This document shows, in pieces, positions 1,684-10,622 of a DNA stretch of 10,622 bases. Source of the stretch: an uncultured Methanosarcinales archaeon (GTDB lineage: Archaea; Nanobdellota; Nanobdellia; Woesearchaeales; CAZYIM01); assembly GCA_964647565.1 (NCBI GenBank), contig CAZYIM010000057.1, positions 1 through 10,622 on the forward strand. Reading direction: 5' to 3'. The position numbers were made by a program, and so were the translations under genes. The first letter of the stretch is position 1. Every line of letters begins with the position of its first letter. The notes beneath the pieces were generated by a model that ran no database searches, had not been told where the DNA came from, and saw nothing but the letters and a program-made list of their open reading frames with translations.

Positions 1684-3684
1684 ATGAAAAAGAAATTTCT
1701 TATTTTCATAACCTATCTTACAATTATTCTGATTGTTCTACAGACAGCGTTAATCACGTATACAACCTATAAAACTTCATCTGATGCGGCCCCAAGCGGG
1801 GCGGTTGTTAAACAGGGTAAAGTTACAATTTGTATCACAGAAGTAATTGATGTCCTGGGATCAGCTGATTTCACATTATACGAACGGCAGAACTATTCAG
1901 CAAAATTCAACCATTCGCAAACCAATCTAACAGTACATATGGTATCTTATTGCCCACCTCCAAAAAGAAACCCGGGAGGAGGACCCATCTTTCAAATGAC
2001 ATCTGATGGGTGGATAAACTTCACTCCCGACGAGAGTTATCTTGAAGCTGACTATTCTGACGGAAGATATATCTGCCAAATATCTGTGATTGCAGATGAA
2101 TCATGGGAAGAGGACGAATGCTTTGCCTGCAATGACACATGGCCCATGTTCATTGTTAAGGATTACAACTATGCACCATATCCAATTGCAAATCTGTCTG
2201 ATACGGTCTGGCCTGCCAACACATCAGTCAGTGCTTTTGTATTAGATGAATATTTTGCAGATCCTGACAATGATACTCTAAGATATAATGTGACTGGTAA
2301 TGAAAATATTATTATCACGATATTGAATTCAAGCGAAGTCTACCTTTCATCATCCTGGTGTGGCATTGAGAATGTTTTTTTTACTGCAATAGATATATCC
2401 CGAGCTGCTCCGCATAATCTGACCAACTACAGCAATTGGGTCAAACTTGAGGCCTCCTGCGCTACTGAGGGCAGCGGATCTGGTGGGGCAGCAGGTGAAG
2501 GTGCAGGTGGTGCATCTATGGGTGGTGCCGGCATGTCTTTACCTTGTGTACCTGAATGGAAATGCTTCCCCTGGGGAGATTGTCAGCCAGATGGAAGCCG
2601 AACCAGACAATGTGTTGACGTAAATGGCTGTGATGCAGACCGCTATGAACAATATCTGACAGAATCCTGTGAATACAAAGTAGAAGAGAATTGTGTAGAA
2701 GACTGGCATTGTGATGAATGGGCTCCCTGTCAACCTGACAATACCCAAACCAGGGAATGCTACGACCAAAACGACTGTGGAACCCAGAATAACATGCCTC
2801 CTGCGACCCAATCCTGTATCTATATTGGCACCTGTTCAGATGACATTAAGAACTGTCATGATGATGCATGTGAGGAAGGAGTTGACTGTGGCGGGCCTTG
2901 CGATCCTTGTGCTGAAGTCCAAATGCCCATACCTATTGACGCCCAGGCAAAGATCACACCCCTTCTGATAATAACAACTATCTCAGCAGCCTTATTGATC
3001 CTGCTTTATGGTTACTTCCACAAACAGATAAACGCAAGTGTTGCCAAACTGGGTTGGAAACTTGCTGGCCAGATCATAAAGCCTATTCTTCTTGCTGACA
3101 AAGAAAAGAAGATTATCATGGAAATGTTATTAGCTTTAGAGAAACGCTTGAAAAAAGCCAAAAAGCTCAAAGAATCCCGTATGATAATCTCTTCAATCAT
3201 GAGATATTTCTATAAAAAACTCATGGATCTGCCCTCGGCATTTAAGATGGACGAATTTAATGTCAAGATAAAGCGTCTGAAGTACCCAGAAACCCTTAAT
3301 CGTATTCTTACATCCTTTGCTGAAAAGATCATAGATCTAGAGAGTGGTAAACTCCCGCTGAACCAACTCGAGATAGAGAACATGATTGAAGAATCCAGAG
3401 TCTTGGTATACCTGACTTCAAGATTCGTCAAAGAGGACATTGGCAAGGAGATCGCTGAGAAGAAGATAGAGACAACAGGTGTAAGCAAGATTGAAAAGAC
3501 CAGATTGATGATCTACAATACATATATTGCCATGCTTTTCAACGAAGTCGAGATCTGTAAGAAAAAATACATTGAGATAATCAATATTTACGATGATCTG
3601 CATCCAGACAAGAAGAAGAAGATTTATGAGGATTTTGCTCGCTTGTTTGATGAGATCAAGTATGTGATCAGCTGGAAAATATAG
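1684..3684 (+). CDS. membrane-spanning surface protein: cadherin-like ectodomain, Gly linker, Cys-rich TSP1-like repeats, TM helix, ~220-aa helical cytoplasmic tail
   Basis: 666-aa ORF. N-terminal hydrophobic helix; cadherin-type Ca motifs DYNYAP and YFADPDNDTLRY; Gly/Ala linker aa 263-283; two 6-Cys repeats aa 288-331 and 337-380; CSDDIKNC...EEGVDCGGPCDPC motif aa 384-409; TM aa ~424-445; Lys/Glu-rich helical tail. About 12 N-x-S/T sequons lie before the second TM and one after it. Confidence 0.88.
   Translation: MKKKFLIFITYLTIILIVLQTALITYTTYKTSSDAAPSGAVVKQGKVTICITEVIDVLGSADFTLYERQNYSAKFNHSQTNLTVHMVSYCPPPKRNPGGGPIFQMTSDGWINFTPDESYLEADYSDGRYICQISVIADESWEEDECFACNDTWPMFIVKDYNYAPYPIANLSDTVWPANTSVSAFVLDEYFADPDNDTLRYNVTGNENIIITILNSSEVYLSSSWCGIENVFFTAIDISRAAPHNLTNYSNWVKLEASCATEGSGSGGAAGEGAGGASMGGAGMSLPCVPEWKCFPWGDCQPDGSRTRQCVDVNGCDADRYEQYLTESCEYKVEENCVEDWHCDEWAPCQPDNTQTRECYDQNDCGTQNNMPPATQSCIYIGTCSDDIKNCHDDACEEGVDCGGPCDPCAEVQMPIPIDAQAKITPLLIITTISAALLILLYGYFHKQINASVAKLGWKLAGQIIKPILLADKEKKIIMEMLLALEKRLKKAKKLKESRMIISSIMRYFYKKLMDLPSAFKMDEFNVKIKRLKYPETLNRILTSFAEKIIDLESGKLPLNQLEIENMIEESRVLVYLTSRFVKEDIGKEIAEKKIETTGVSKIEKTRLMIYNTYIAMLFNEVEICKKKYIEIINIYDDLHPDKKKKIYEDFARLFDEIKYVISWKI
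2545..2823 (+). repeat. two intragenic 44-codon Cys/Trp repeats (2545-2676, 2692-2823)
   Basis: CVPEWKCFPWGDCQPDGSRTRQCVDVNGCDADRYEQYLTESCEY vs CVEDWHCDEWAPCQPDNTQTRECYDQNDCGTQNNMPPATQSCIY: ungapped, 19/44 identical by hand, with all six Cys and both Trp conserved. Confidence 0.9.
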
Positions 3685-3780
3685 TTCTAAACCTAATTCT
3701 TGGCCTTGAAAAAGGAAAAAACTTATACGCGAGAAATTAGAAAAAAAAAGATTTCTGAGCATAAATTGTTCTAAAAAAAG

Positions 3781-3795
3781 GAGAAAATTTATAAA
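3781..3795 (+). promoter_or_regulatory. putative BRE/TATA promoter for the RHH-RHH-adhesin unit
   Basis: Purine-rich GAGAAAA followed by TTTATAAA (3788-3795). An alternative TATA-like TTTATTAA lies at 3844-3851, 27 nt before ATG 3879. Confidence 0.55.
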
Positions 3796-3873
3796 TAGTT
3801 GAATAAGTTAATTAATTTAAAATAGTTAATTTGTTTAGATAAGTTTATTAAATAAAATAAGTTAAATAACTTA
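3793..3873. repeat. degenerate 9-bp tandem array (consensus AATAAGTTA), putative RHH operator
   Basis: Nine contiguous 9-mers: aaatagttg, aataagtta, attaattta, aaatagtta, atttgttta, gataagttt, attaaataa, aataagtta, aataactta. AGTT starts at 3797, 3806, 3824, 3842 and 3860. Perfect inverted repeat TAAGTTA-aa-TAACTTA at 3858-3873. Confidence 0.6.
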
Positions 3874-3878
3874 GTAAA

Positions 3879-4007
3879 ATGCCCAACATAAACATCATAA
3901 TTCCGAATGAGCTGCATAAGAACCTCAAAATAATTTCTATTGAAAAAGGTATAACTATGAAGGAGCTCATCCAGAAAACCCTAGAACTAGAAATTAAAAA
4001 TGGTTAA
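3879..4007 (+). CDS. small ribbon-helix-helix (CopG/Arc/MetJ-like) DNA-binding protein, 42 aa
   Basis: Hand translation MPNINIIIPNELHKNLKIISIEKGITMKELIQKTLELEIKNG*. It shows an alternating N-terminal beta strand, helix A (ELHKNLK), a G-I-T turn and helix B (MKELIQKTL), the canonical RHH pattern. Absent from the ORF track, whose shortest entry is 60 aa. Confidence 0.85.
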   Translation: MPNINIIIPNELHKNLKIISIEKGITMKELIQKTLELEIKNG

Positions 4008-4122
4008 TATCAACATCGAGATCAAAGAAAACGTACATAAAAACTTGAAGATAAATGCTGCTAAGAACGAGCAGACCCTTAAAGATCATATTATAGAGAT
4101 ACTAGAAAGGATTAAAAAATGA
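4000..4122 (+). CDS. second, paralogous ribbon-helix-helix protein, 40 aa
   Basis: Hand translation MVNINIEIKENVHKNLKINAAKNEQTLKDHIIEILERIKK*. 17/40 identical, ungapped, to the preceding ORF. Overlaps it by 8 nt and overlaps the next gene by ATGA (4119-4122). Confidence 0.83.
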   Translation: MVNINIEIKENVHKNLKINAAKNEQTLKDHIIEILERIKK

Positions 4123-7100
4123 AAAAACAGACCAAATATGCCCTTTTGACAATCAGCATATTAGTATTACTATCGCTTCTGGTATCTGCAATAACTTTCG
4201 ATTCAGATCCTACCATAAACAATCTACCACCAATCACAGGCGGTAATCTATCTGAAGTTATGTCCCGTACCAATTTGAATTGCAGTTGGAATGCAACAGA
4301 CTCAATACAGACCAATGTCAGCTGGTATAGAAATGGCGTTTCCATATTGAACAAGACCGTGCTGAGCAGCTATGATATAATTGAAAACAGTCAGACATCC
4401 AAAGGAGACACTTGGAACTGCTCAATTACCATTACAGACGGTATCCCCCCCTCCCTAACTAGTTGGTATGCAGTTGTGATCAGCAATTCACCCCCAGAAC
4501 CACCCCACGTCAGAGATTGGAATAGTGATGTCGTAATTAACTGGACACACGTCTATGAAGATCAGAATTTCCTATACCAAATAAATTCATCAGACATCGA
4601 CAATGATCCCTTGGTATTCAGCGTACTATCTCTAGAAAGCGCCCGCTCAGACTTATGTGCTGTTCTTACTCCTGATAATAATCCAGCATCAATCCGATGC
4701 AGCCCGATAGCAATGGATCTGGATTCCATTCATGTTCCCACAACAAGAAAAGTCAACTTCAAGGTAGATGAGAACATCGAAGGTATTGCTTATGGAATCT
4801 CGAAAACTATATACCTCAACATAACTCCTGTCAACGACACACCTATATTCATGGCAGGATTTCCAGACGATATCCTGACCTATCAAGGAAATAGAACCAA
4901 CTTCGACTATTATGATAGCGGTACAGGCAGGTACGGACACCTTATCTGGGCAGAGGATGAAGAAAACGATACTATTGGCTTCTCTCTAGGCTTGCCCCCT
5001 GCCCTAACAGGAAGATTAGAGATTGTATCTGTCACTGAAAATGCTCAACATGACTACAGAGCAGTGATGTCCTGGAATACTGCCACTACATATCCCGAAT
5101 TCAGGGATAGAGGCAACTATTCAATCAATGTCACTATCTTTCATACGGGGAACACCTCCAACAACAGGACATCTCCATTCCTTTTAGAGGTTATTCCTGT
5201 CAATACACCACCCAACATAACAGGCATAGGTTTTACGCCGACAGCACAAAATCAGAATTTTACATTGATCGTGAATGTGTCAGATGTCAATAACGATACA
5301 TTTATTTTCAACATGGTCGGGATAGCATGTCCATTATCCAATCCTTGGTCTCTTACTATTGTGAATAACGGTACATGGAACAATACTCGGAACCTAAGTC
5401 TAGGCCAAGCCATATTCAACAATACCTTAACTAATACACATGTCGCGTGCGACCACGTCAATGTCTCTGTAACAGATATAAACACACTTGGTGAAACCCA
5501 GGAAACAGTGTGGACCAATGTAACTTTAAATCTGATAAATGTTAATGATCCGCCTGTACTCAACCAGCTTAGCGGTTATCCAGGGAACACTGGAGGAGAC
5601 GATATGAGCAATCTTCTTGCTTATGCACATGGAAGTTTCTATTATAAATTGAATGCCACAGATCCAGACCTTTATGTAGGAGGTGAGGTGTTATCATACA
5701 GCCACAATTCAACAGCAGCTTTCTTTGATATAAATAATAATGGCGAAATCTTATTCACACCAAACAGCTCAGATGTAAATAACTACTCCATAAATATCAC
5801 TGTAATAGACATCAACTTTAGCAATAGTTCGAGAGTAATGACCCTAAGAGTGCTGCCAAATGAGATACCCTATTTCATTCCATCACTGCAGAATCAAACC
5901 AATATTAGCGAAGGCCTTAATTTCACATATCAGGTTAATGCAACAGATGCAGATGCAGACAACATAACTTATTCAGCCAGATTTGTTAATGGAAGCATCT
6001 CAGGATTCACCATAAACACAACAACCGGCCTGATTTGGGCTTTACCACAACAAGCAGAAATTGGAAATCATACCGTAAATATTTCAGTAATAGATGAACA
6101 TGGAGCCATAAATTGGAGCGTCATCATATTCGAGATTGTAAACAGGAATGATGCCCCCCTACTCACTAACTATGATTTTTCAACCCTTACAATAGTAGAA
6201 ACCCACGAAGCCACCTATTATATTGCAGCTACTGACAAGGATCTGGTCTTACCATCTACCTATGATAGTCTAACTTTCAATGTTTCACTCACCTGGCCGA
6301 TCAATTATTCTCTAAACTACAGCCTAGGGTCACAAATCACTGGAAATAGTACATCGACCATCAAATTTGTACTTAGACCTGTAGATGGCGATGCAGGCAA
6401 CTATTCAATGAACATCACGGTCTATGATAGTCTTGGAGAAGTAGATGTCAGACGCGTCACTTTCAATATTATAAACAGGTCTGCTCCACCAAACATTGCT
6501 AATGTGACTCCCTTTGGAATGCCCAAGAACAACAACTATAGCAATGCATGGACAGTCAATGACTTCCTGAATTCAATAACCTATCTACATATAACTGAAA
6601 ACTTACAGGATGATGTCACCAGGAACTGGCTCTTGTTTAACCACACAACCACGGATGAGAATCTGACTGGCATGACCTATACGTGGTATCTTAATGGAAC
6701 AGAGATCACTGGTTCAGAGCTTATGGAAAGAACACATACTTACAACAGGACCTTCGATTATTTCTCTGCAGGAACCTATAATATCACTCTCTTGGCAGAA
6801 GATGCAACCCTTGAATCAGATAGATTTTCCTGGATAGTAAATGTCACCAATGTTGACAGGGCTCCTGATCTGGAAACTCCCCTTGTAAATATCACTATCA
6901 CAGGATATGTTAATTCATTCTATAATTATTTCCTCTATTGGGGAGGCTCGGCCAAATTTGTAGATCCTGATGACGATTTAAACAATAATGAGATAATCGA
7001 TGGTAATGAATCCAGTGGACTGACTTATAATGCTACCACCTGCAATAAAGCCAACTTACAGATAATAAATCACACCTTGTTTGTTGATTCTACAGAACTG

Positions 7101-7973
7101 GGCATATGCTATGTTCTTTTCACTGCAGAGGATAATGATACCCTAAGTAAGACATCTAATATGGTAAAGATCAATATTTCCTATGTAACCAACAAGACAG
7201 AACAGCAAACCCAGATCTCTGGAGGAGGAGGAACATCTCGAACCATAACTGTACCCATACCTGAAGAGGTTGTTGTACCAGTACCTCTACAGATCATAAC
7301 ACCCAGCCTGATCTCCATATATAGGAACAGGACTATCAGGGTTCCAATCACAATTAAGAACAACTGGAACGATTCATTATTTGATGTCTCTTTGAACGTG
7401 TTATTAAATGCAACACACCCAGATATAAAATACAGTCTTACAAAAGACTATTTCCCTGACATTCCAAGTAATGCATCTGAAGAGATCTTCCTGACCATAT
7501 CCAACTACAGGCTTGGTGAGAATTTCGAGATTATACTTGGTGCCAATGTCAGCACACCTAATTATTATGACAAGGTAAAGATTGCTATCAACTCGATGGA
7601 AGGCAGCATGGGTGAGGCTGCTGAACAAAAAGTGACCTTTGCAAGGGATCTGTTAAGCCAGAATCCCGAATGTATGGAATTACAGGAAATACTGCTTAAA
7701 GCTGAAGACCTGATCAGAGCAGAGAAATTCAGGGAAGCAACTGATCATTTAGAGGGTGTCATTAATGGTTGTAAATACCTGATGAGTGCTCGTGAAAGCT
7801 TCGAAGAGCAGCCAACTCTGATCAGTGAAGTTAGGTCTACCCTAAAAATATATCAGAGTCAGTTATTATTTGCAGGTATTGGCTTGTTCGTGATTATTTC
7901 TGCAATCGTGACCATCAACAGCATAAGAAAACCAAAAAAACCAAAAGAAGAAGAACAAGCAAACGTCATCTAA
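4119..7973 (+). CDS. large (1284 aa) type I membrane surface glycoprotein/adhesin with tandem cadherin-like/putative Ig domains
   Basis: Signal peptide MKKQTKYALLTISILVLLSLLVSA. Repeated cadherin-type linkers (PVNDTP, PVNTPP, NVNDPP, PNEIP, NRNDAP, NVDRAP) are paired with DxDxD-like motifs (DIDND, EDEEND, TDPD, TDADAD, TDKD, DPDDD). Also a PKD-like segment (YTWYLNG...GTYNITL), a Gly linker, a CARDB-like domain, a helical stalk, a C-terminal TM (LLFAGIGLFVIISAIVTI) and a short Lys-rich tail. Confidence 0.9.
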   Translation: MKKQTKYALLTISILVLLSLLVSAITFDSDPTINNLPPITGGNLSEVMSRTNLNCSWNATDSIQTNVSWYRNGVSILNKTVLSSYDIIENSQTSKGDTWNCSITITDGIPPSLTSWYAVVISNSPPEPPHVRDWNSDVVINWTHVYEDQNFLYQINSSDIDNDPLVFSVLSLESARSDLCAVLTPDNNPASIRCSPIAMDLDSIHVPTTRKVNFKVDENIEGIAYGISKTIYLNITPVNDTPIFMAGFPDDILTYQGNRTNFDYYDSGTGRYGHLIWAEDEENDTIGFSLGLPPALTGRLEIVSVTENAQHDYRAVMSWNTATTYPEFRDRGNYSINVTIFHTGNTSNNRTSPFLLEVIPVNTPPNITGIGFTPTAQNQNFTLIVNVSDVNNDTFIFNMVGIACPLSNPWSLTIVNNGTWNNTRNLSLGQAIFNNTLTNTHVACDHVNVSVTDINTLGETQETVWTNVTLNLINVNDPPVLNQLSGYPGNTGGDDMSNLLAYAHGSFYYKLNATDPDLYVGGEVLSYSHNSTAAFFDINNNGEILFTPNSSDVNNYSINITVIDINFSNSSRVMTLRVLPNEIPYFIPSLQNQTNISEGLNFTYQVNATDADADNITYSARFVNGSISGFTINTTTGLIWALPQQAEIGNHTVNISVIDEHGAINWSVIIFEIVNRNDAPLLTNYDFSTLTIVETHEATYYIAATDKDLVLPSTYDSLTFNVSLTWPINYSLNYSLGSQITGNSTSTIKFVLRPVDGDAGNYSMNITVYDSLGEVDVRRVTFNIINRSAPPNIANVTPFGMPKNNNYSNAWTVNDFLNSITYLHITENLQDDVTRNWLLFNHTTTDENLTGMTYTWYLNGTEITGSELMERTHTYNRTFDYFSAGTYNITLLAEDATLESDRFSWIVNVTNVDRAPDLETPLVNITITGYVNSFYNYFLYWGGSAKFVDPDDDLNNNEIIDGNESSGLTYNATTCNKANLQIINHTLFVDSTELGICYVLFTAEDNDTLSKTSNMVKINISYVTNKTEQQTQISGGGGTSRTITVPIPEEVVVPVPLQIITPSLISIYRNRTIRVPITIKNNWNDSLFDVSLNVLLNATHPDIKYSLTKDYFPDIPSNASEEIFLTISNYRLGENFEIILGANVSTPNYYDKVKIAINSMEGSMGEAAEQKVTFARDLLSQNPECMELQEILLKAEDLIRAEKFREATDHLEGVINGCKYLMSARESFEEQPTLISEVRSTLKIYQSQLLFAGIGLFVIISAIVTINSIRKPKKPKEEEQANVI

Positions 7974-9055
7974 GAGCTTAAAGCAGAATAAAATTTATTG
8001 ATTTCTTCAAAATATTGCTGTTTTTCCTTCTCATCCAGCTCTTCATATTCTCTTTGTAGATCCTTGTAAACTGATTTTGCAGTTGCAACATCATTTTTTG
8101 CCAGACTCATCTCAATAACCTCAATCAGTTTTGGAATGTCAACTTCAGGTTCATCCTGGCTGTATTCAGGATCAGATTTCGGGGTCTCTAAGGCCCAATC
8201 AGAAGGCTTATCAGCACCGATCTCGTCAGGGATGGCATCAGGCTCCTCAACATCTCTTTGTGGTTCGGGTTGGGCTGTTGATTCTGAGACAGTCTCAATC
8301 TGAGAGATTGAAGCATATATTTTGTTTATATCCTCAAAATACTCAGCTTTTTTCGCTTCATCAAGAGCCTCATATTTAGCCAGTATTGATTTGTATAAGT
8401 TCTGAGCAGCATCTATATCATTCTTATTTAGATTCATGTATAGCAATTCAATCTTACTTTTCAGCTCATCTGGAGATGATTCTGGATCTGCTTCTTTCGA
8501 ACCTACTTGTGCCCCTTCAGGAACTTCAAAAGAGGGTCTACTAGCTAAAGACTCTTCGCTCATCTCTGAAAATGCCTTAGAAGATCCGTCTTCAACTGCG
8601 GCTTTGGCTATAGCAGTAGAACTGTCTTTAGCAGTTGAACTAGAAGAAACATGGAATATTTTTGCCAATAACCGGGTTTCAGACCTGGATTTCTGCTTTA
8701 ATATGTTACCTATAATTAATGAGTCAACGATTTTAACAAATGATTCTAATAGTTCCTTGAGTTCTTTTTGGTTAAACTTGTAGTCAGTATATTCGATGTA
8801 TCCAATGCTATTTAGAAACGTAAACAATTCAGATCTTATATCATAATTCAGGTAGACGTTTTTCAGCTCAGACTCTAATTCTGCAAAGGTGAATTCATAA
8901 TTAAGATTGAGATATAGTCTAAAAAAATCTTTAACAAGAGAATAAACCTCAAAATCATCAATCAAGTCCTTGCTCATAAGGTACGTAATTTTCCTAGAAG
9001 TGACTTCTTTTAACTCTTTTTTATTTAGTTCGAACTCCCCCCTCTTTGATTCCAT
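7970..9055 (-). CDS. soluble acidic protein: N-terminal DUF4129/BatD-C-like helical domain plus two three-helix repeats joined by disordered linkers
   Basis: 361-aa ORF with no signal peptide or TM. Helical domain aa ~37-110 (SLVKDFF...EFTFAEL...LFTFLNSIGYIEY); Ser/Glu/Pro-rich linkers; two 56-aa repeats; TATA box 24 nt upstream. The family name is a motif-level guess. Confidence 0.85.
   Translation of the reverse strand: MESKRGEFELNKKELKEVTSRKITYLMSKDLIDDFEVYSLVKDFFRLYLNLNYEFTFAELESELKNVYLNYDIRSELFTFLNSIGYIEYTDYKFNQKELKELLESFVKIVDSLIIGNILKQKSRSETRLLAKIFHVSSSSTAKDSSTAIAKAAVEDGSSKAFSEMSEESLASRPSFEVPEGAQVGSKEADPESSPDELKSKIELLYMNLNKNDIDAAQNLYKSILAKYEALDEAKKAEYFEDINKIYASISQIETVSESTAQPEPQRDVEEPDAIPDEIGADKPSDWALETPKSDPEYSQDEPEVDIPKLIEVIEMSLAKNDVATAKSVYKDLQREYEELDEKEKQQYFEEINKFYSALSS
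7979..8473 (-). repeat. two intragenic 56-codon helical repeats (8306-8473, 7979-8146)
   Basis: PDELKSKIELLYMNLNKNDIDAAQNLYKSILAKYEALDEAKKAEYFEDINKIYASI vs EVDIPKLIEVIEMSLAKNDVATAKSVYKDLQREYEELDEKEKQQYFEEINKFYSAL: ungapped, 23/56 identical by hand. Confidence 0.9.
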
Positions 9056-9189: not shown

Positions 9190-10200
9190 ATGAAAAACAT
9201 AGCTTATGAAATTCCTGAAACAAAAGAATTAGATGAAAAAATCAAATATTATGGGGTTAAAATTCAACAAATAAGAGATGAGTTAGGTAAGATTGTGGTT
9301 GGTCAAAAGGAAATCGTCGATGGACTAATAGAATCACTCCTATGTGACGGCCTTGCCTTAGTTGAAGGTGTGCCCGGAACAGGTAAAACTCTGATCATAA
9401 AATCACTTTCAAAGATCACGGGCTGTATGTTCTCAAGAATCCAGTTCACTCCAGACTTACTACCGACAGACATCATAGGTCTTACCACCTATGAAGAGGG
9501 TAAGGGATTTTATACTGTAAAAGGCCCTATCTTTGCAAATTTTGTGATTGCAGACGAAATCAACAGGTCACCGCCTAAAGTACAGTCTGCATTGCTGGAA
9601 GGTATGCAGGAAAGACAGGTGACAATTGGAAAGGAGACTTTCAAACTGCCACATCCTTTCTTTGTAATGGCCACACAAAATCCTCTTGAACAACTAGGAA
9701 CCTATAAGCTTCCAGAAGCACAGGTAGATAGATTCCTTTACAAGCTCTCTATAAGCTATCCATCAACAGAAGAAGAGATCCTTATTCTCAAGCAGAACAT
9801 GACCCTGACAGACTTCGGCGAGTATAATCTGGAACCTATCCTCAATCCAGAGGAAATCAATGAGGCTCAGGAGTTTGTAAAAAAAATCTATCTAGACAAA
9901 AAGATAGAAAGATATATTGTAAAGATTGTAGAAGCTACCAGGAATCCAAAAAAATACAACATAGATTTGGGTAAATATATCCTATATGGCGCATCACCCA
10001 GGTCTAGTATAAGCCTCTTTATATCCTCAAAAGCTCATGCCATTATAATGGGCAGGGCATATGTAACTCAAAAGGATGTTAAAGAGATTGCTTTCAATGT
10101 TCTGCGTCACAGGATACTCTTGAATTTCGAAGGAGAAGCTGAAGAGATCAAAACAGAGCAGATAGTTCAAGAGATCCTAGACAAGGTACCTATACTTTAA
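9190..10200 (+). CDS. moxR: MoxR-family AAA+ ATPase (MoxR proper type)
   Basis: Walker A GVPGTGKT; RIQFTPDLLPTD; Walker B VIADEINR; QSALLEGMQE; sensor I ATQNP; YKLPEAQVDRF (Arg finger region); GASPR; LRHRI. Confidence 0.97.
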   Translation: MKNIAYEIPETKELDEKIKYYGVKIQQIRDELGKIVVGQKEIVDGLIESLLCDGLALVEGVPGTGKTLIIKSLSKITGCMFSRIQFTPDLLPTDIIGLTTYEEGKGFYTVKGPIFANFVIADEINRSPPKVQSALLEGMQERQVTIGKETFKLPHPFFVMATQNPLEQLGTYKLPEAQVDRFLYKLSISYPSTEEEILILKQNMTLTDFGEYNLEPILNPEEINEAQEFVKKIYLDKKIERYIVKIVEATRNPKKYNIDLGKYILYGASPRSSISLFISSKAHAIIMGRAYVTQKDVKEIAFNVLRHRILLNFEGEAEEIKTEQIVQEILDKVPIL

Positions 10201-10205
10201 CTAAA

Positions 10206-10622
10206 ATGGCTGTCCAAGAGTTAAGATTAGATCTTCTGCCAAGGTTCAAACAAGCTGAACTTAAGGTAAGGCAAGCTATCTTAAGCAAGATGCTTCAAGG
10301 AGAATGGACTACCATGTTCAAGGGAAGGAGTATGGAGTTCACAGGTTTTAGAAAGTATGAATATGGCGATGATGCTAGTCTGATAGATTGGGGCGCATCC
10401 CTGCGTGCCAAAGATATCCTAGTAAGAGAGTTCGAAGAATACAGGAATTTCGAGATATTCTTTATGTTAGATGTAAGCGACAGCATGCTGTTTTCCTCAA
10501 CAGGCAGATTGAAATGTGAGTATGCTGCTGAAGTACTCTATGCCATCATGTATGGCGCAATCAACAGCGACAATGCAAACGGCATGCGTATGATTAAAGA
10601 CGGGTTGAATAAAAGAAATGAA
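10206..10622 (+). CDS. 3'-partial DUF58 family (vWA-like) protein
   Basis: Not in the ORF track. Open to the window end: MAVQELRLDLLPRFKQAELKVRQAILSKMLQGEWTTMFKGRSMEFTGFRKYEYGDDASLIDWGASLRAKDILVREFEEYRNFEIFFMLDVSDSMLF... It carries the DUF58 signature (G..EF...R.Y..GDD...IDW.AS.R...VREFEE) and a MIDAS-like DVSDS, and starts 5 nt after the moxR stop. Confidence 0.95.
   Translation, partial: MAVQELRLDLLPRFKQAELKVRQAILSKMLQGEWTTMFKGRSMEFTGFRKYEYGDDASLIDWGASLRAKDILVREFEEYRNFEIFFMLDVSDSMLFSSTGRLKCEYAAEVLYAIMYGAINSDNANGMRMIKDGLNKRNE

Follow-up and report, generated by a model that had tools for sequence, protein, structure and literature searches.

The omega repressor of plasmid pSM19035, a ribbon-helix-helix (RHH) protein, binds arrays of 7-bp heptads, and MetJ binds tandem 8-bp metboxes. 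CopG (RepA) of pMV158 and Arc of phage P22 each bind a single pseudo-symmetric operator of 13-21 bp, ParG of TP228 autoregulates through repeat arrays, and in TraY of F-like plasmids two RHH repeats are fused in one polypeptide. In Archaea, the available portions of a report on Halobacteria describe the cdrL-cdrS-ftsZ2 locus, where two consecutive RHH genes precede a regulated structural gene and the small RHH gene is co-transcribed with it, and state that CdrS is found in every major archaeal group except DPANN (PMC7439475). The stretch of DNA analysed here (the window) is the entire 10,622-bp contig CAZYIM010000057.1 (C57) of an archaeon deposited as an uncultured member of the Methanosarcinales and placed by GTDB in the Woesearchaeales (assembly GCA_964647565.1, hereafter G000; 86 contigs, 2.68 Mb, 38% G+C). 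It carries two overlapping genes for paralogous RHH proteins of 42 and 40 amino acids (aa), preceded by a TATA-like box with an array of 9-bp units and followed by the gene of a giant surface glycoprotein, which we read, with a probability of about two in three, as an RHH cassette that would repress itself, in the manner of omega, CopG and MetJ, and so control a surface-protein operon. To our knowledge, DPANN archaea are almost entirely uncultured and the regulation of their giant surface proteins is unstudied; these proteins are thought to mediate host attachment.

The first gene, RHH1 (ORF1), lies at 3879-4007 on the forward strand and encodes 42 aa, with a predicted strand at residues 1-9 and predicted helices at 10-23 and 27-41, and the second, RHH2 (ORF2; 4000-4122, forward strand), encodes 40 aa with predicted helices at 10-22 and 27-39 (AlphaFold2 models in both cases). 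The stop of ORF1 and the start of ORF2 overlap by 8 nt (ATGGTTAA). An original prediction, made from the letters of the window, had placed both open reading frames (ORFs) correctly, and its figure of 17/40 identical residues was essentially right, as BLASTP aligned 17 of 36 positions as identical without a gap (E 9e-7) and a direct count gave 18 identities across 40 shared columns. The features which it named as common to the two proteins, M-x-N-I-N-I-x-I and H-K-N-L-K-I, and those in which they differ, namely the turn (positions 19-25) and helix B, were likewise recovered in the alignment. Its description of the pair as hidden and unannotated holds in so far as homologues are mostly unnamed or labelled 'hypothetical', but gene callers had found both, as the protein sets of NCBI, JGI/IMG and ENA already include entries identical in sequence to ORF1 and ORF2. 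Scored per genome with a family profile, ORF1 (E 2.4e-18) and ORF2 (E 5.4e-15) show a likeness beyond chance, and a third close copy was not found in the 2.68-Mb assembly, in which the next tblastn match had an E-value of 0.08 and the profile recovered only these two. ORF1 and ORF2 are real paralogous genes for minimal RHH proteins.

All 11 Pfam matches of ORF1 and ORF2 are to RHH families (Antitox_RHH, RHH_10, RepB-RCR_reg, HicB, Omega_Repress, ParD, FitA-like and 56B_RHH). Comparison of a profile built from an alignment of 71 family members with the PDB places the family in the RHH superfamily by sequence, with matches to ParG (1p94; E 4e-6) over profile positions 2-41, which comprise the strand and both helices, and to ParD (2an7; E 5e-5), 56B (2kel; E 2.6e-3) and omega (2bnw/1irq; E 0.017/0.031). 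The AlphaFold2 models show an extended N-terminal segment and two helices in each protein, with predicted local distance difference test (pLDDT) values of 93.7 for ORF1 and 94.2 for ORF2, and thereby the RHH order of strand, helix A, turn and helix B within about 40-45 residues. In a Foldseek search made with the ORF1 model only, the top rows were all RHH proteins (StnY, Arc, omega, CopG, ORF56 and ParG), with template modelling (TM) scores of 0.71-0.92. The RHH identity proposed earlier is borne out by the profile, the models and the Foldseek rows, and the models, which might have lacked the fold, are strand-helix-helix. Across the 71 sequences N5 and H13 are invariant and K17 is kept in at least 90%, and both copies in the window retain the candidate DNA-facing residues N3, N5, H13, K17 and K28. 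We assign ORF1 and ORF2, on profile matches and confidently predicted structures, to the RHH superfamily.

The spacer upstream of ORF1 is 194 nt long and contains a TATA-like box (TTTATAAATA; 3788-3797, forward strand) with an A-rich stretch before it, the putative promoter of the RHH genes and the giant gene behind them, followed on the same strand by a putative operator array (3803-3874) which ends 4 nt before the ORF1 start codon. The array is 72 bp long and consists of two 36-nt direct repeats of 75% identity, equal to eight 9-bp units. Exact 7-mers are found at 3804-3810 and 3858-3864 (TAAGTTA) and at 3867-3873 (TAACTTA) and degenerate units at 3823-3829 (TAGTTAA) and 3840-3846 (TAAGTTT), and the centres of these units (3807, 3825, 3843, 3861 and 3870) fall on one 9-bp lattice. 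TAAGTTA is a 7-bp palindrome except for its central base pair. TAAGTTA/TAACTTA occurs 286 times in the G000 assembly (0.107 per kb), of which the array is the only cluster of at least three in the 2.68 Mb; two exact 7-mers within 40 nt of each other are found at only one other place, inside a 558-aa open frame. A looser search of the whole window for ATAAGTTWA with one mismatch gave 10 matches against 9.8 expected, and only the exact clustered sites are enriched. A bacterial promoter and terminator scan of the window was uninformative for an archaeon. The spacer also holds a 28-nt direct repeat (3700-3727 and 3766-3793, 79% identity) whose copies end in CTTATA and TTTATA and which may be a duplicated promoter module. 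A further 43-nt stretch (3723-3765) is matched, with a 4-nt deletion, by otherwise unlike contigs in three of four DNA runs; these contigs apparently come from other organisms or loci, and the stretch may be a conserved intergenic element.

The array is conserved and specific to the RHH loci in relatives, that is, in genomes of 0.6-2.3 Mb from the same order and different families, from which a detailed set of 50 loci was drawn up (the window, 21 single-gene loci and 28 tandem loci). When the k-mers of the 160 nt that precede the first RHH gene were ranked without bias, with the remainder of the loci as background, TAAGTTA/TAACTTA came first, with 118 copies in 47 of the 50 loci against 1.46 expected, and the 50 upstream regions of 200 nt hold 120 sites, compared with 9.8 +/- 3.1 (maximum 22) in 500 first-order Markov resamples. 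Of 120 pairwise distances between sites, 70 are multiples of 9 and a further 39 are 4 or 5 modulo 9, the latter corresponding to a half-shifted palindrome (TAAGTTAACTTA), with no comparable periodicity at other periods from 7 to 11; the flanks of the sites repeat the neighbouring units 9 bp away. In 22 of the 50 loci the first site is preceded by a TTTATAWA-like box, which begins 7-17 nt ahead of it and often abuts it (e.g. TTTATAAATAAGTTA). Three elaborations of this picture were considered and rejected. Separate operators for proteins with N3-type and R3-type strands are not seen, the same core being present in 28 of 29 and 19 of 21 loci, respectively; sites are no more numerous before pairs than before single genes (means of 2.5 and 2.2 per locus); and a second promoter or operator between the copies is absent, since none of the seven gaps of at least 25 nt between first and second RHH genes contains the 7-mer, which indicates a single upstream control region. 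In one locus with a triple array of RHH genes (L069, G147:C6) there is no exact TAAGTTA upstream, and this branch may use a diverged site.

A regulator gene within its own operon, with repeated sites between a TATA-like box and the ATG, is the arrangement of an auto-repressing operon, and it is the one found here. In such a cassette RHH dimers would pair their N-terminal strands into a ribbon from which N3 and N5 would read the major groove at TAAGTTA, and the dimers would line up along the 9-bp lattice, which begins directly behind the TATA box and stops 4 nt short of the ORF1 start codon. Cooperative coating of the array would block the recruitment of TFB and RNA polymerase or promoter escape, and operon self-repression of this kind would hold surface-protein output in check. 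These sites could be occupied by homodimers of the diverged copies, by heterodimers or by both.

The gene that the array would ultimately govern follows ORF2 without a gap. The TGA of ORF2 overlaps the ATG at 4119 of a 1284-aa gene (4119-7973, forward strand; ATGA, 4 nt) whose product has an N-terminal hydrophobic signal or anchor segment, immunoglobulin-like domains (Big_9, E 1.6e-5), 70 N-x-S/T sequons and a C-terminal membrane anchor. This glycoprotein gene is likely the cargo of the operon, and from the layout of the genes we infer that RHH1, RHH2 and the giant gene form a three-gene operon co-transcribed as a single transcript. In 22 genomes an orthologue of the giant gene (25-35% identity; for 16 the alignment covers most of the length) comes directly after RHH genes, behind a pair in 19 and behind a single gene in three (G066, G169 and G288). 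Translation of ORF1 and ORF2 is probably coupled, judging by the overlap of the two genes; among the 29 tandem loci, 19 of 30 RHH-RHH junctions overlap or are separated by no more than 4 nt, and overlapping stop and start codons are common across loci. The original prediction was right that the pair has no toxin, ParA or Rep gene beside it, but it had missed the gene overlaps, the giant glycoprotein operon and the repeat array at 3803-3874.

Public homologues, sought among proteins of 20-102 aa, are labelled Candidatus Woesearchaeota or Nanoarchaeota and fall into 511 clusters at E <= 1e-3 among 801 candidates. A search with ORF1 alone found matches (E <= 1) in 22 of 41 related genomes, four of them with tandem pairs, and with the family profile, at E <= 1e-3, members were detected in 132 of the 301 genomes searched within the order; no claim is based on the two of these 301 that are flagged as unpublished. 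In a phylum-wide sample at E <= 1e-5, the 72 positive genomes out of 301 comprised G000, 65 others of the same order and six from other orders of the class. Tandem arrays are present in at least 29 published genomes, G000 included, so that the tandem arrangement, whose conservation the original prediction had proposed as a check, is indeed kept in relatives. Some genomes hold up to seven family matches. In G006 the same RHH pair occurs twice with identical scores (G006:C1:1863-2150 and G006:C25:4748-5035), which may reflect duplication of the cassette or of the assembly.

Other cargo stands behind the same regulators. Genes for FlaI/GspE-like ATPases of about 750 aa follow five RHH pairs and one single RHH gene, and elsewhere the cargo consists of assorted secreted Cys-rich proteins or, in G012, a DHH-family gene. 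The ATPase-linked loci (L047 in G019, L055 in G064, L056 in G061, L061 in G146, L066 in G065 and L020 in G036) have the same TAAGTTA sites and are translationally coupled, and the ~750-aa proteins carry a 'KRDYEYDY' motif, their likeness to FlaI/GspE-type secretion or pilus ATPases having been judged by eye. In L069 (G147:C6), three RHH genes in a row with ATGA-type overlaps are followed by the gene of a 993-aa surface protein. That the same family and TAAGTTA arrays precede such different cargo (FlaI/GspE-like ATPases and secreted Cys-rich proteins) would also suit RHH proteins that act as activators or anti-silencers of the operon, or in trans on a wider surface and secretion regulon; with up to seven family matches per genome, cross-talk between loci that share an operator is plausible, and the available portions of the haloarchaeal report describe an RHH activator, CdrS, acting on ftsZ2 (PMC7439475). 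Against this, G000 has one pair and one cluster of sites and hence nothing else to regulate through the motif, and an array that spans the region from TATA box to start codon occupies the classical position for repression. We consider activation or a trans-acting regulon quite unlikely, and self-repression remains our preferred account of the locus.

The conserved cargo also bears on whether the pair could serve a mobile element as an antitoxin or as a regulator of plasmid copy number or partition (of HicB, ParD, ParG or CopG type). Database labels point in this direction, as many homologues carry the JGI name 'predicted HicB family RNase H-like nuclease' and one NCBI homologue record reads 'type II toxin-antitoxin system HicB family antitoxin', and there are weak Pfam and PDB matches to ParD, ParG, HicB, the RepB regulator and omega; the Pfam matches, however, lie under the cut-off and are limited to the generic RHH core. 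No toxin, ParA, Rep or integrase gene is found on the 10.6-kb contig, in 22 genomes the gene behind the RHH genes encodes a conserved secreted glycoprotein, and the proteins stop directly behind helix B, without the C-terminal toxin-binding extension of a type II antitoxin. A genuine VapB-like RHH protein with a PIN partner looks different. One such protein is encoded in L012 (G027; 1501-1877, ~74 aa), where the RHH gene is followed by a short gene that is PIN-like by eye and forms with it an ordinary module of the VapB/VapC-like kind, outside the present family; the same different RHH type (beginning MTNITLAIP or MPNLTLAIP) occurs in G000 itself (G000:C15:30977-31099), and neither locus has TAAGTTA. 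An antitoxin or plasmid function is therefore highly improbable, in keeping with the earlier view that this is not an ordinary toxin-antitoxin or plasmid module.

In relatives, both members of the pair are kept by selection. Between orthologous copies compared at >= 70% amino-acid identity, synonymous divergence (dS) is mostly saturated and nonsynonymous divergence (dN) is 0.06-0.25, and where dS can be estimated dN/dS is 0.02-0.19: for G006/G211 0.19 in the first copy and 0.028 in the second, for the second copy of G185/G247 0.048 and for the first copy of G287/G233 0.096. These low ratios, found for first and second copies alike, indicate that both were retained by selection in relatives, so that the dN/dS check proposed with the original prediction came out as purifying selection on both copies, measured in relatives. 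Population variants of G000 were not found, the organism's contigs from four DNA runs (two studies) being identical to the window. Within pairs, N3 is shared in 0.96, N5 and H13 in 1.0 and K17 and K28 in 0.89 of cases, while the copies diverge at position 7 and in the turn and helix B (0.3-0.5 for the latter two).

The history of the pair is not that of a single old split. Identity within pairs ranges from 0.42 to 0.95 (about 45% for G000), and the pairs of G196 and G237 are 95% identical with dS of only 0.11 and 0.25, which marks them as recent duplicates or conversions. A tree of 79 sequences over 42 columns was poorly resolved (4 starred branches of 76), yet several pairs are mutual nearest relatives on it (G279, starred, and G105, G065, G237 and G196), and positional orthology is visible only within families (G006/G211, G185/G247 and G233/G287). 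The labels 'first' and 'second' require 22 and 21 changes on the tree against 23.1 and 22.7 when shuffled, i.e. they do not cluster, and an identity test across 19 genomes gave 72 comparisons in favour of the same order, 67 in favour of the swapped order and 32 ties. One ancient A/B duplication was accordingly rejected at the scale of the order. As far as sequence comparison can tell, tandem duplication or gene conversion has produced the pair state repeatedly, and the pairs then persist for family-level times. Compared with the 19 genomes, G000 was closer to the swapped order in 12 and to the same order in seven, which is not significant, and its gene order may be inverted relative to some relatives. 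The pair of G105 (L070, G105:C10, 2001-2260) has a dS of 0.24 and a dN/dS of 0.77 with changes concentrated in helix B, and may be under relaxed or diversifying selection after recent duplication.

This history is central to the proposal, made in the original prediction, that the two paralogues form an obligate or tunable heterodimer, in which the divergent turn and helix B would give an asymmetric dimer on a shared DNA-reading ribbon. Several observations are compatible with it: the gene overlap and the many junctions that overlap or are at most 4 nt apart (19/30) make coupled, near-equimolar translation probable, first and second copies are each maintained as positional orthologues under purifying selection in the three families named above, and within pairs it is the DNA-facing positions that are shared (N3 0.96, N5 1.0) and the turn and helix B that differ. 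A complex prediction for ORF1 with ORF2 scored 0.37 against 0.01 for the best control ('weak support' in the verdict of the tool, with no interface reported), with at least 93% contact agreement between runs and a partner pLDDT of at least 78. This score passed a mark that 116 solved complexes out of 157 also attained, as did two of 215 mismatched pairs. Among scores of 0.60 or less, only 18 of the 157 solved complexes attained it, together with both passing mismatches, and because many RHH dimers are already solved the pass may merely echo those structures and shows likeness rather than mutual binding. The tool is moreover unable to compare hetero- with homodimers, the hetero pair alone having been folded. 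On the other side, only one RHH gene stands before the giant-gene orthologue in G066, G169 and G288, a triple array exists in G147, the pairs of G196 and G237 are near-identical recent duplicates or conversions, first and second copies form no separate clades, and TAAGTTA, being symmetric except for its central base pair, suits a symmetric dimer. The paralogues are thus not always kept together as distinct types. Shared DNA specificity of the two copies, which formed part of the proposal, is plausible given the retention of N3, N5, H13, K17 and K28, whereas an obligate heterodimer is unsupported in view of copy numbers of one to three, the 95% identical pairs and the lack of A/B clades, and as a general property it is unlikely. 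For the pair of G000 in particular we treat heterodimerization, obligate or tunable, as a possible but rather unlikely state. A bolder version, doubtful in our opinion, would have the G000 copies as a true heterodimeric RHH protein that polymerises on the 9-bp lattice over the leader, with the TAAGTTA code serving as a lineage-wide DPANN switch for host-contact surface and secretion genes.

Several points weigh against the self-repressing cassette. DNA binding, the sign of regulation (repression or activation), the transcription start and co-transcription are steps that we infer. A search for RNA runs that contain 3300-4800 found none listed. Every Pfam match of ORF1 and ORF2 is under its gathering score, with the best at 19.8 bits for ORF1 (Antitox_RHH, cut-off 27.2) and 19.5 for ORF2 (ParD, cut-off 27.3), and the NCBIfam matches are likewise under their cut-offs (two weak ones for ORF1, at 19.2 against 87, and zero for ORF2), so that the proteins can be filed in the RHH superfamily and in no named family. 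No Foldseek match of the ORF1 model reached E <= 0.001, which is usual for 42 residues. Three of the 50 loci have no exact 7-mer upstream, and the 50 are a non-random sample, the 21 single genes coming from the 30 best-scoring loci and the 28 tandems having been chosen as tandem. The enrichment statistics are inflated, since the loci counted include some in which the motif first came to notice, the genomes are related to one another and site distances from one locus are not independent, although the effect sizes are large. Selection was measured in relatives only, G000 being without a close relative, and since the assembly is 86.9% complete (1.85% contamination) the array and pair are the only such locus within its assembled part.

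Upstream of ORF1 on the forward strand are three further surface or membrane protein genes, the last of which (1684-3684) encodes a 666-aa protein with 26 Cys and no Pfam match. Orthologues of this Cys-rich neighbour stand immediately upstream of the RHH genes in 14 genomes, and as the promoter and operator lie between it and RHH1 it is probably a separate transcription unit. On the reverse strand, the gene of a 361-aa acidic protein (7970-9055) without a Pfam family converges on the giant gene, their stop codons overlapping by 4 nt; residues 36-110 of this protein are similar (36% identity over 75 aa, E 2e-8) to the C-terminal, cytoplasmic portion of the G114 orthologue of the Cys-rich protein. 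Beyond it are a MoxR-type AAA+ ATPase gene (9190-10200; AAA_3, E 2e-57, and AAA_lid_2) and, 5 nt after it, a DUF58 gene (10206-10622) that runs off the contig end, in the usual MoxR-DUF58 pairing. Rfam families and tRNAs were not found in the window. At 2.68 Mb, G000 exceeds every listed relative in the order (0.6-2.3 Mb), and it is the sole sampled member of its own family.

Of the described systems, omega and MetJ come closest in the way the operator is built. Like them, the locus combines a minimal RHH dimer with an operator made of a short direct or inverted repeat array overlapping the promoter, on which dimers would be expected to sit side by side, and the likeness to omega extends to the family profile (E 0.017-0.031 with 2bnw/1irq) and to the fold, the ORF1 model superposing on 1irq with a TM score of 0.76. 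It differs from both in its 9-bp period, its TAAGTTA core and its archaeal TATA promoter, and from omega also in its cargo, a giant surface glycoprotein instead of copy-number, partition or toxin genes, and in having two paralogous genes instead of one. CopG (1b01, 2cpg) and Arc (1par) are likewise RHH proteins of 40-50 aa encoded by the first gene of a self-repressed operon, and they match the ORF1 model more closely in fold (TM 0.85-0.89, root-mean-square deviation ~1.1 A over 41-42 columns), but they show no significant sequence match, belong to a bacterial plasmid or phage setting and use a single 13-21 bp operator, unlike the 72-bp periodic array found here. ParG (1p94) is the best match of the profile in the PDB (E 4e-6, positions 2-41), yet its N terminus is a flexible tail of 30 residues and its role lies in plasmid partition, together with the ParF ATPase, whereas the present proteins are a bare 40-aa core with no ParF or ParA.

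As the nearest archaeal precedent, the available portions of the report on CdrL-CdrS describe a pair of RHH genes placed before the structural gene that they regulate, with the difference that the two proteins there belong to phylogenetically distinct RHH clades and are not recent paralogues, that CdrL is long and has a zinc-ribbon, and that the cargo is a tubulin homologue (PMC7439475). In the sections available of a review of archaeal 'dark matter', RHH proteins are mentioned only as antitoxins (PMC6393860), and full-text literature searches on RHH/CopG proteins and surface-protein regulation in DPANN/Woesearchaeota returned no description of the module. Many such loci are now carried in public databases as 'hypothetical' or, probably wrongly, as 'HicB antitoxin/nuclease'. 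As the same 7-bp core and 9-bp period recur across the order, one binding result would annotate hundreds of loci, and the present locus offers a complete and directly testable regulator-operator pair, with two 40-aa proteins accessible by chemical synthesis, a defined 72-bp target and a conserved cargo gene.

TraY shows where the duplication of such units could lead, as its duplicated RHH units work as an asymmetric pseudo-dimer, which would be the end state of the heterodimer scenario; here the genes are separate and vary in copy number from one to three, the search for homologues having covered proteins of 20-102 aa. Were the heterodimer reading true, the pair would be a free-standing counterpart of the fused TraY, with one shared ribbon and two different outer faces. 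An RHH auto-repressor acting on a repeat array is a textbook principle, so the value of the locus lies in its setting and in the paralogy of its regulators and not in a new mechanism. It represents a known regulatory kind in an unstudied lineage, and what sets it apart from omega, MetJ, CopG, Arc, ParG, CdrL-CdrS and TraY is the 9-bp/TAAGTTA array at an archaeal promoter, the surface and secretion cargo, and the recurrent paralogous pairs.

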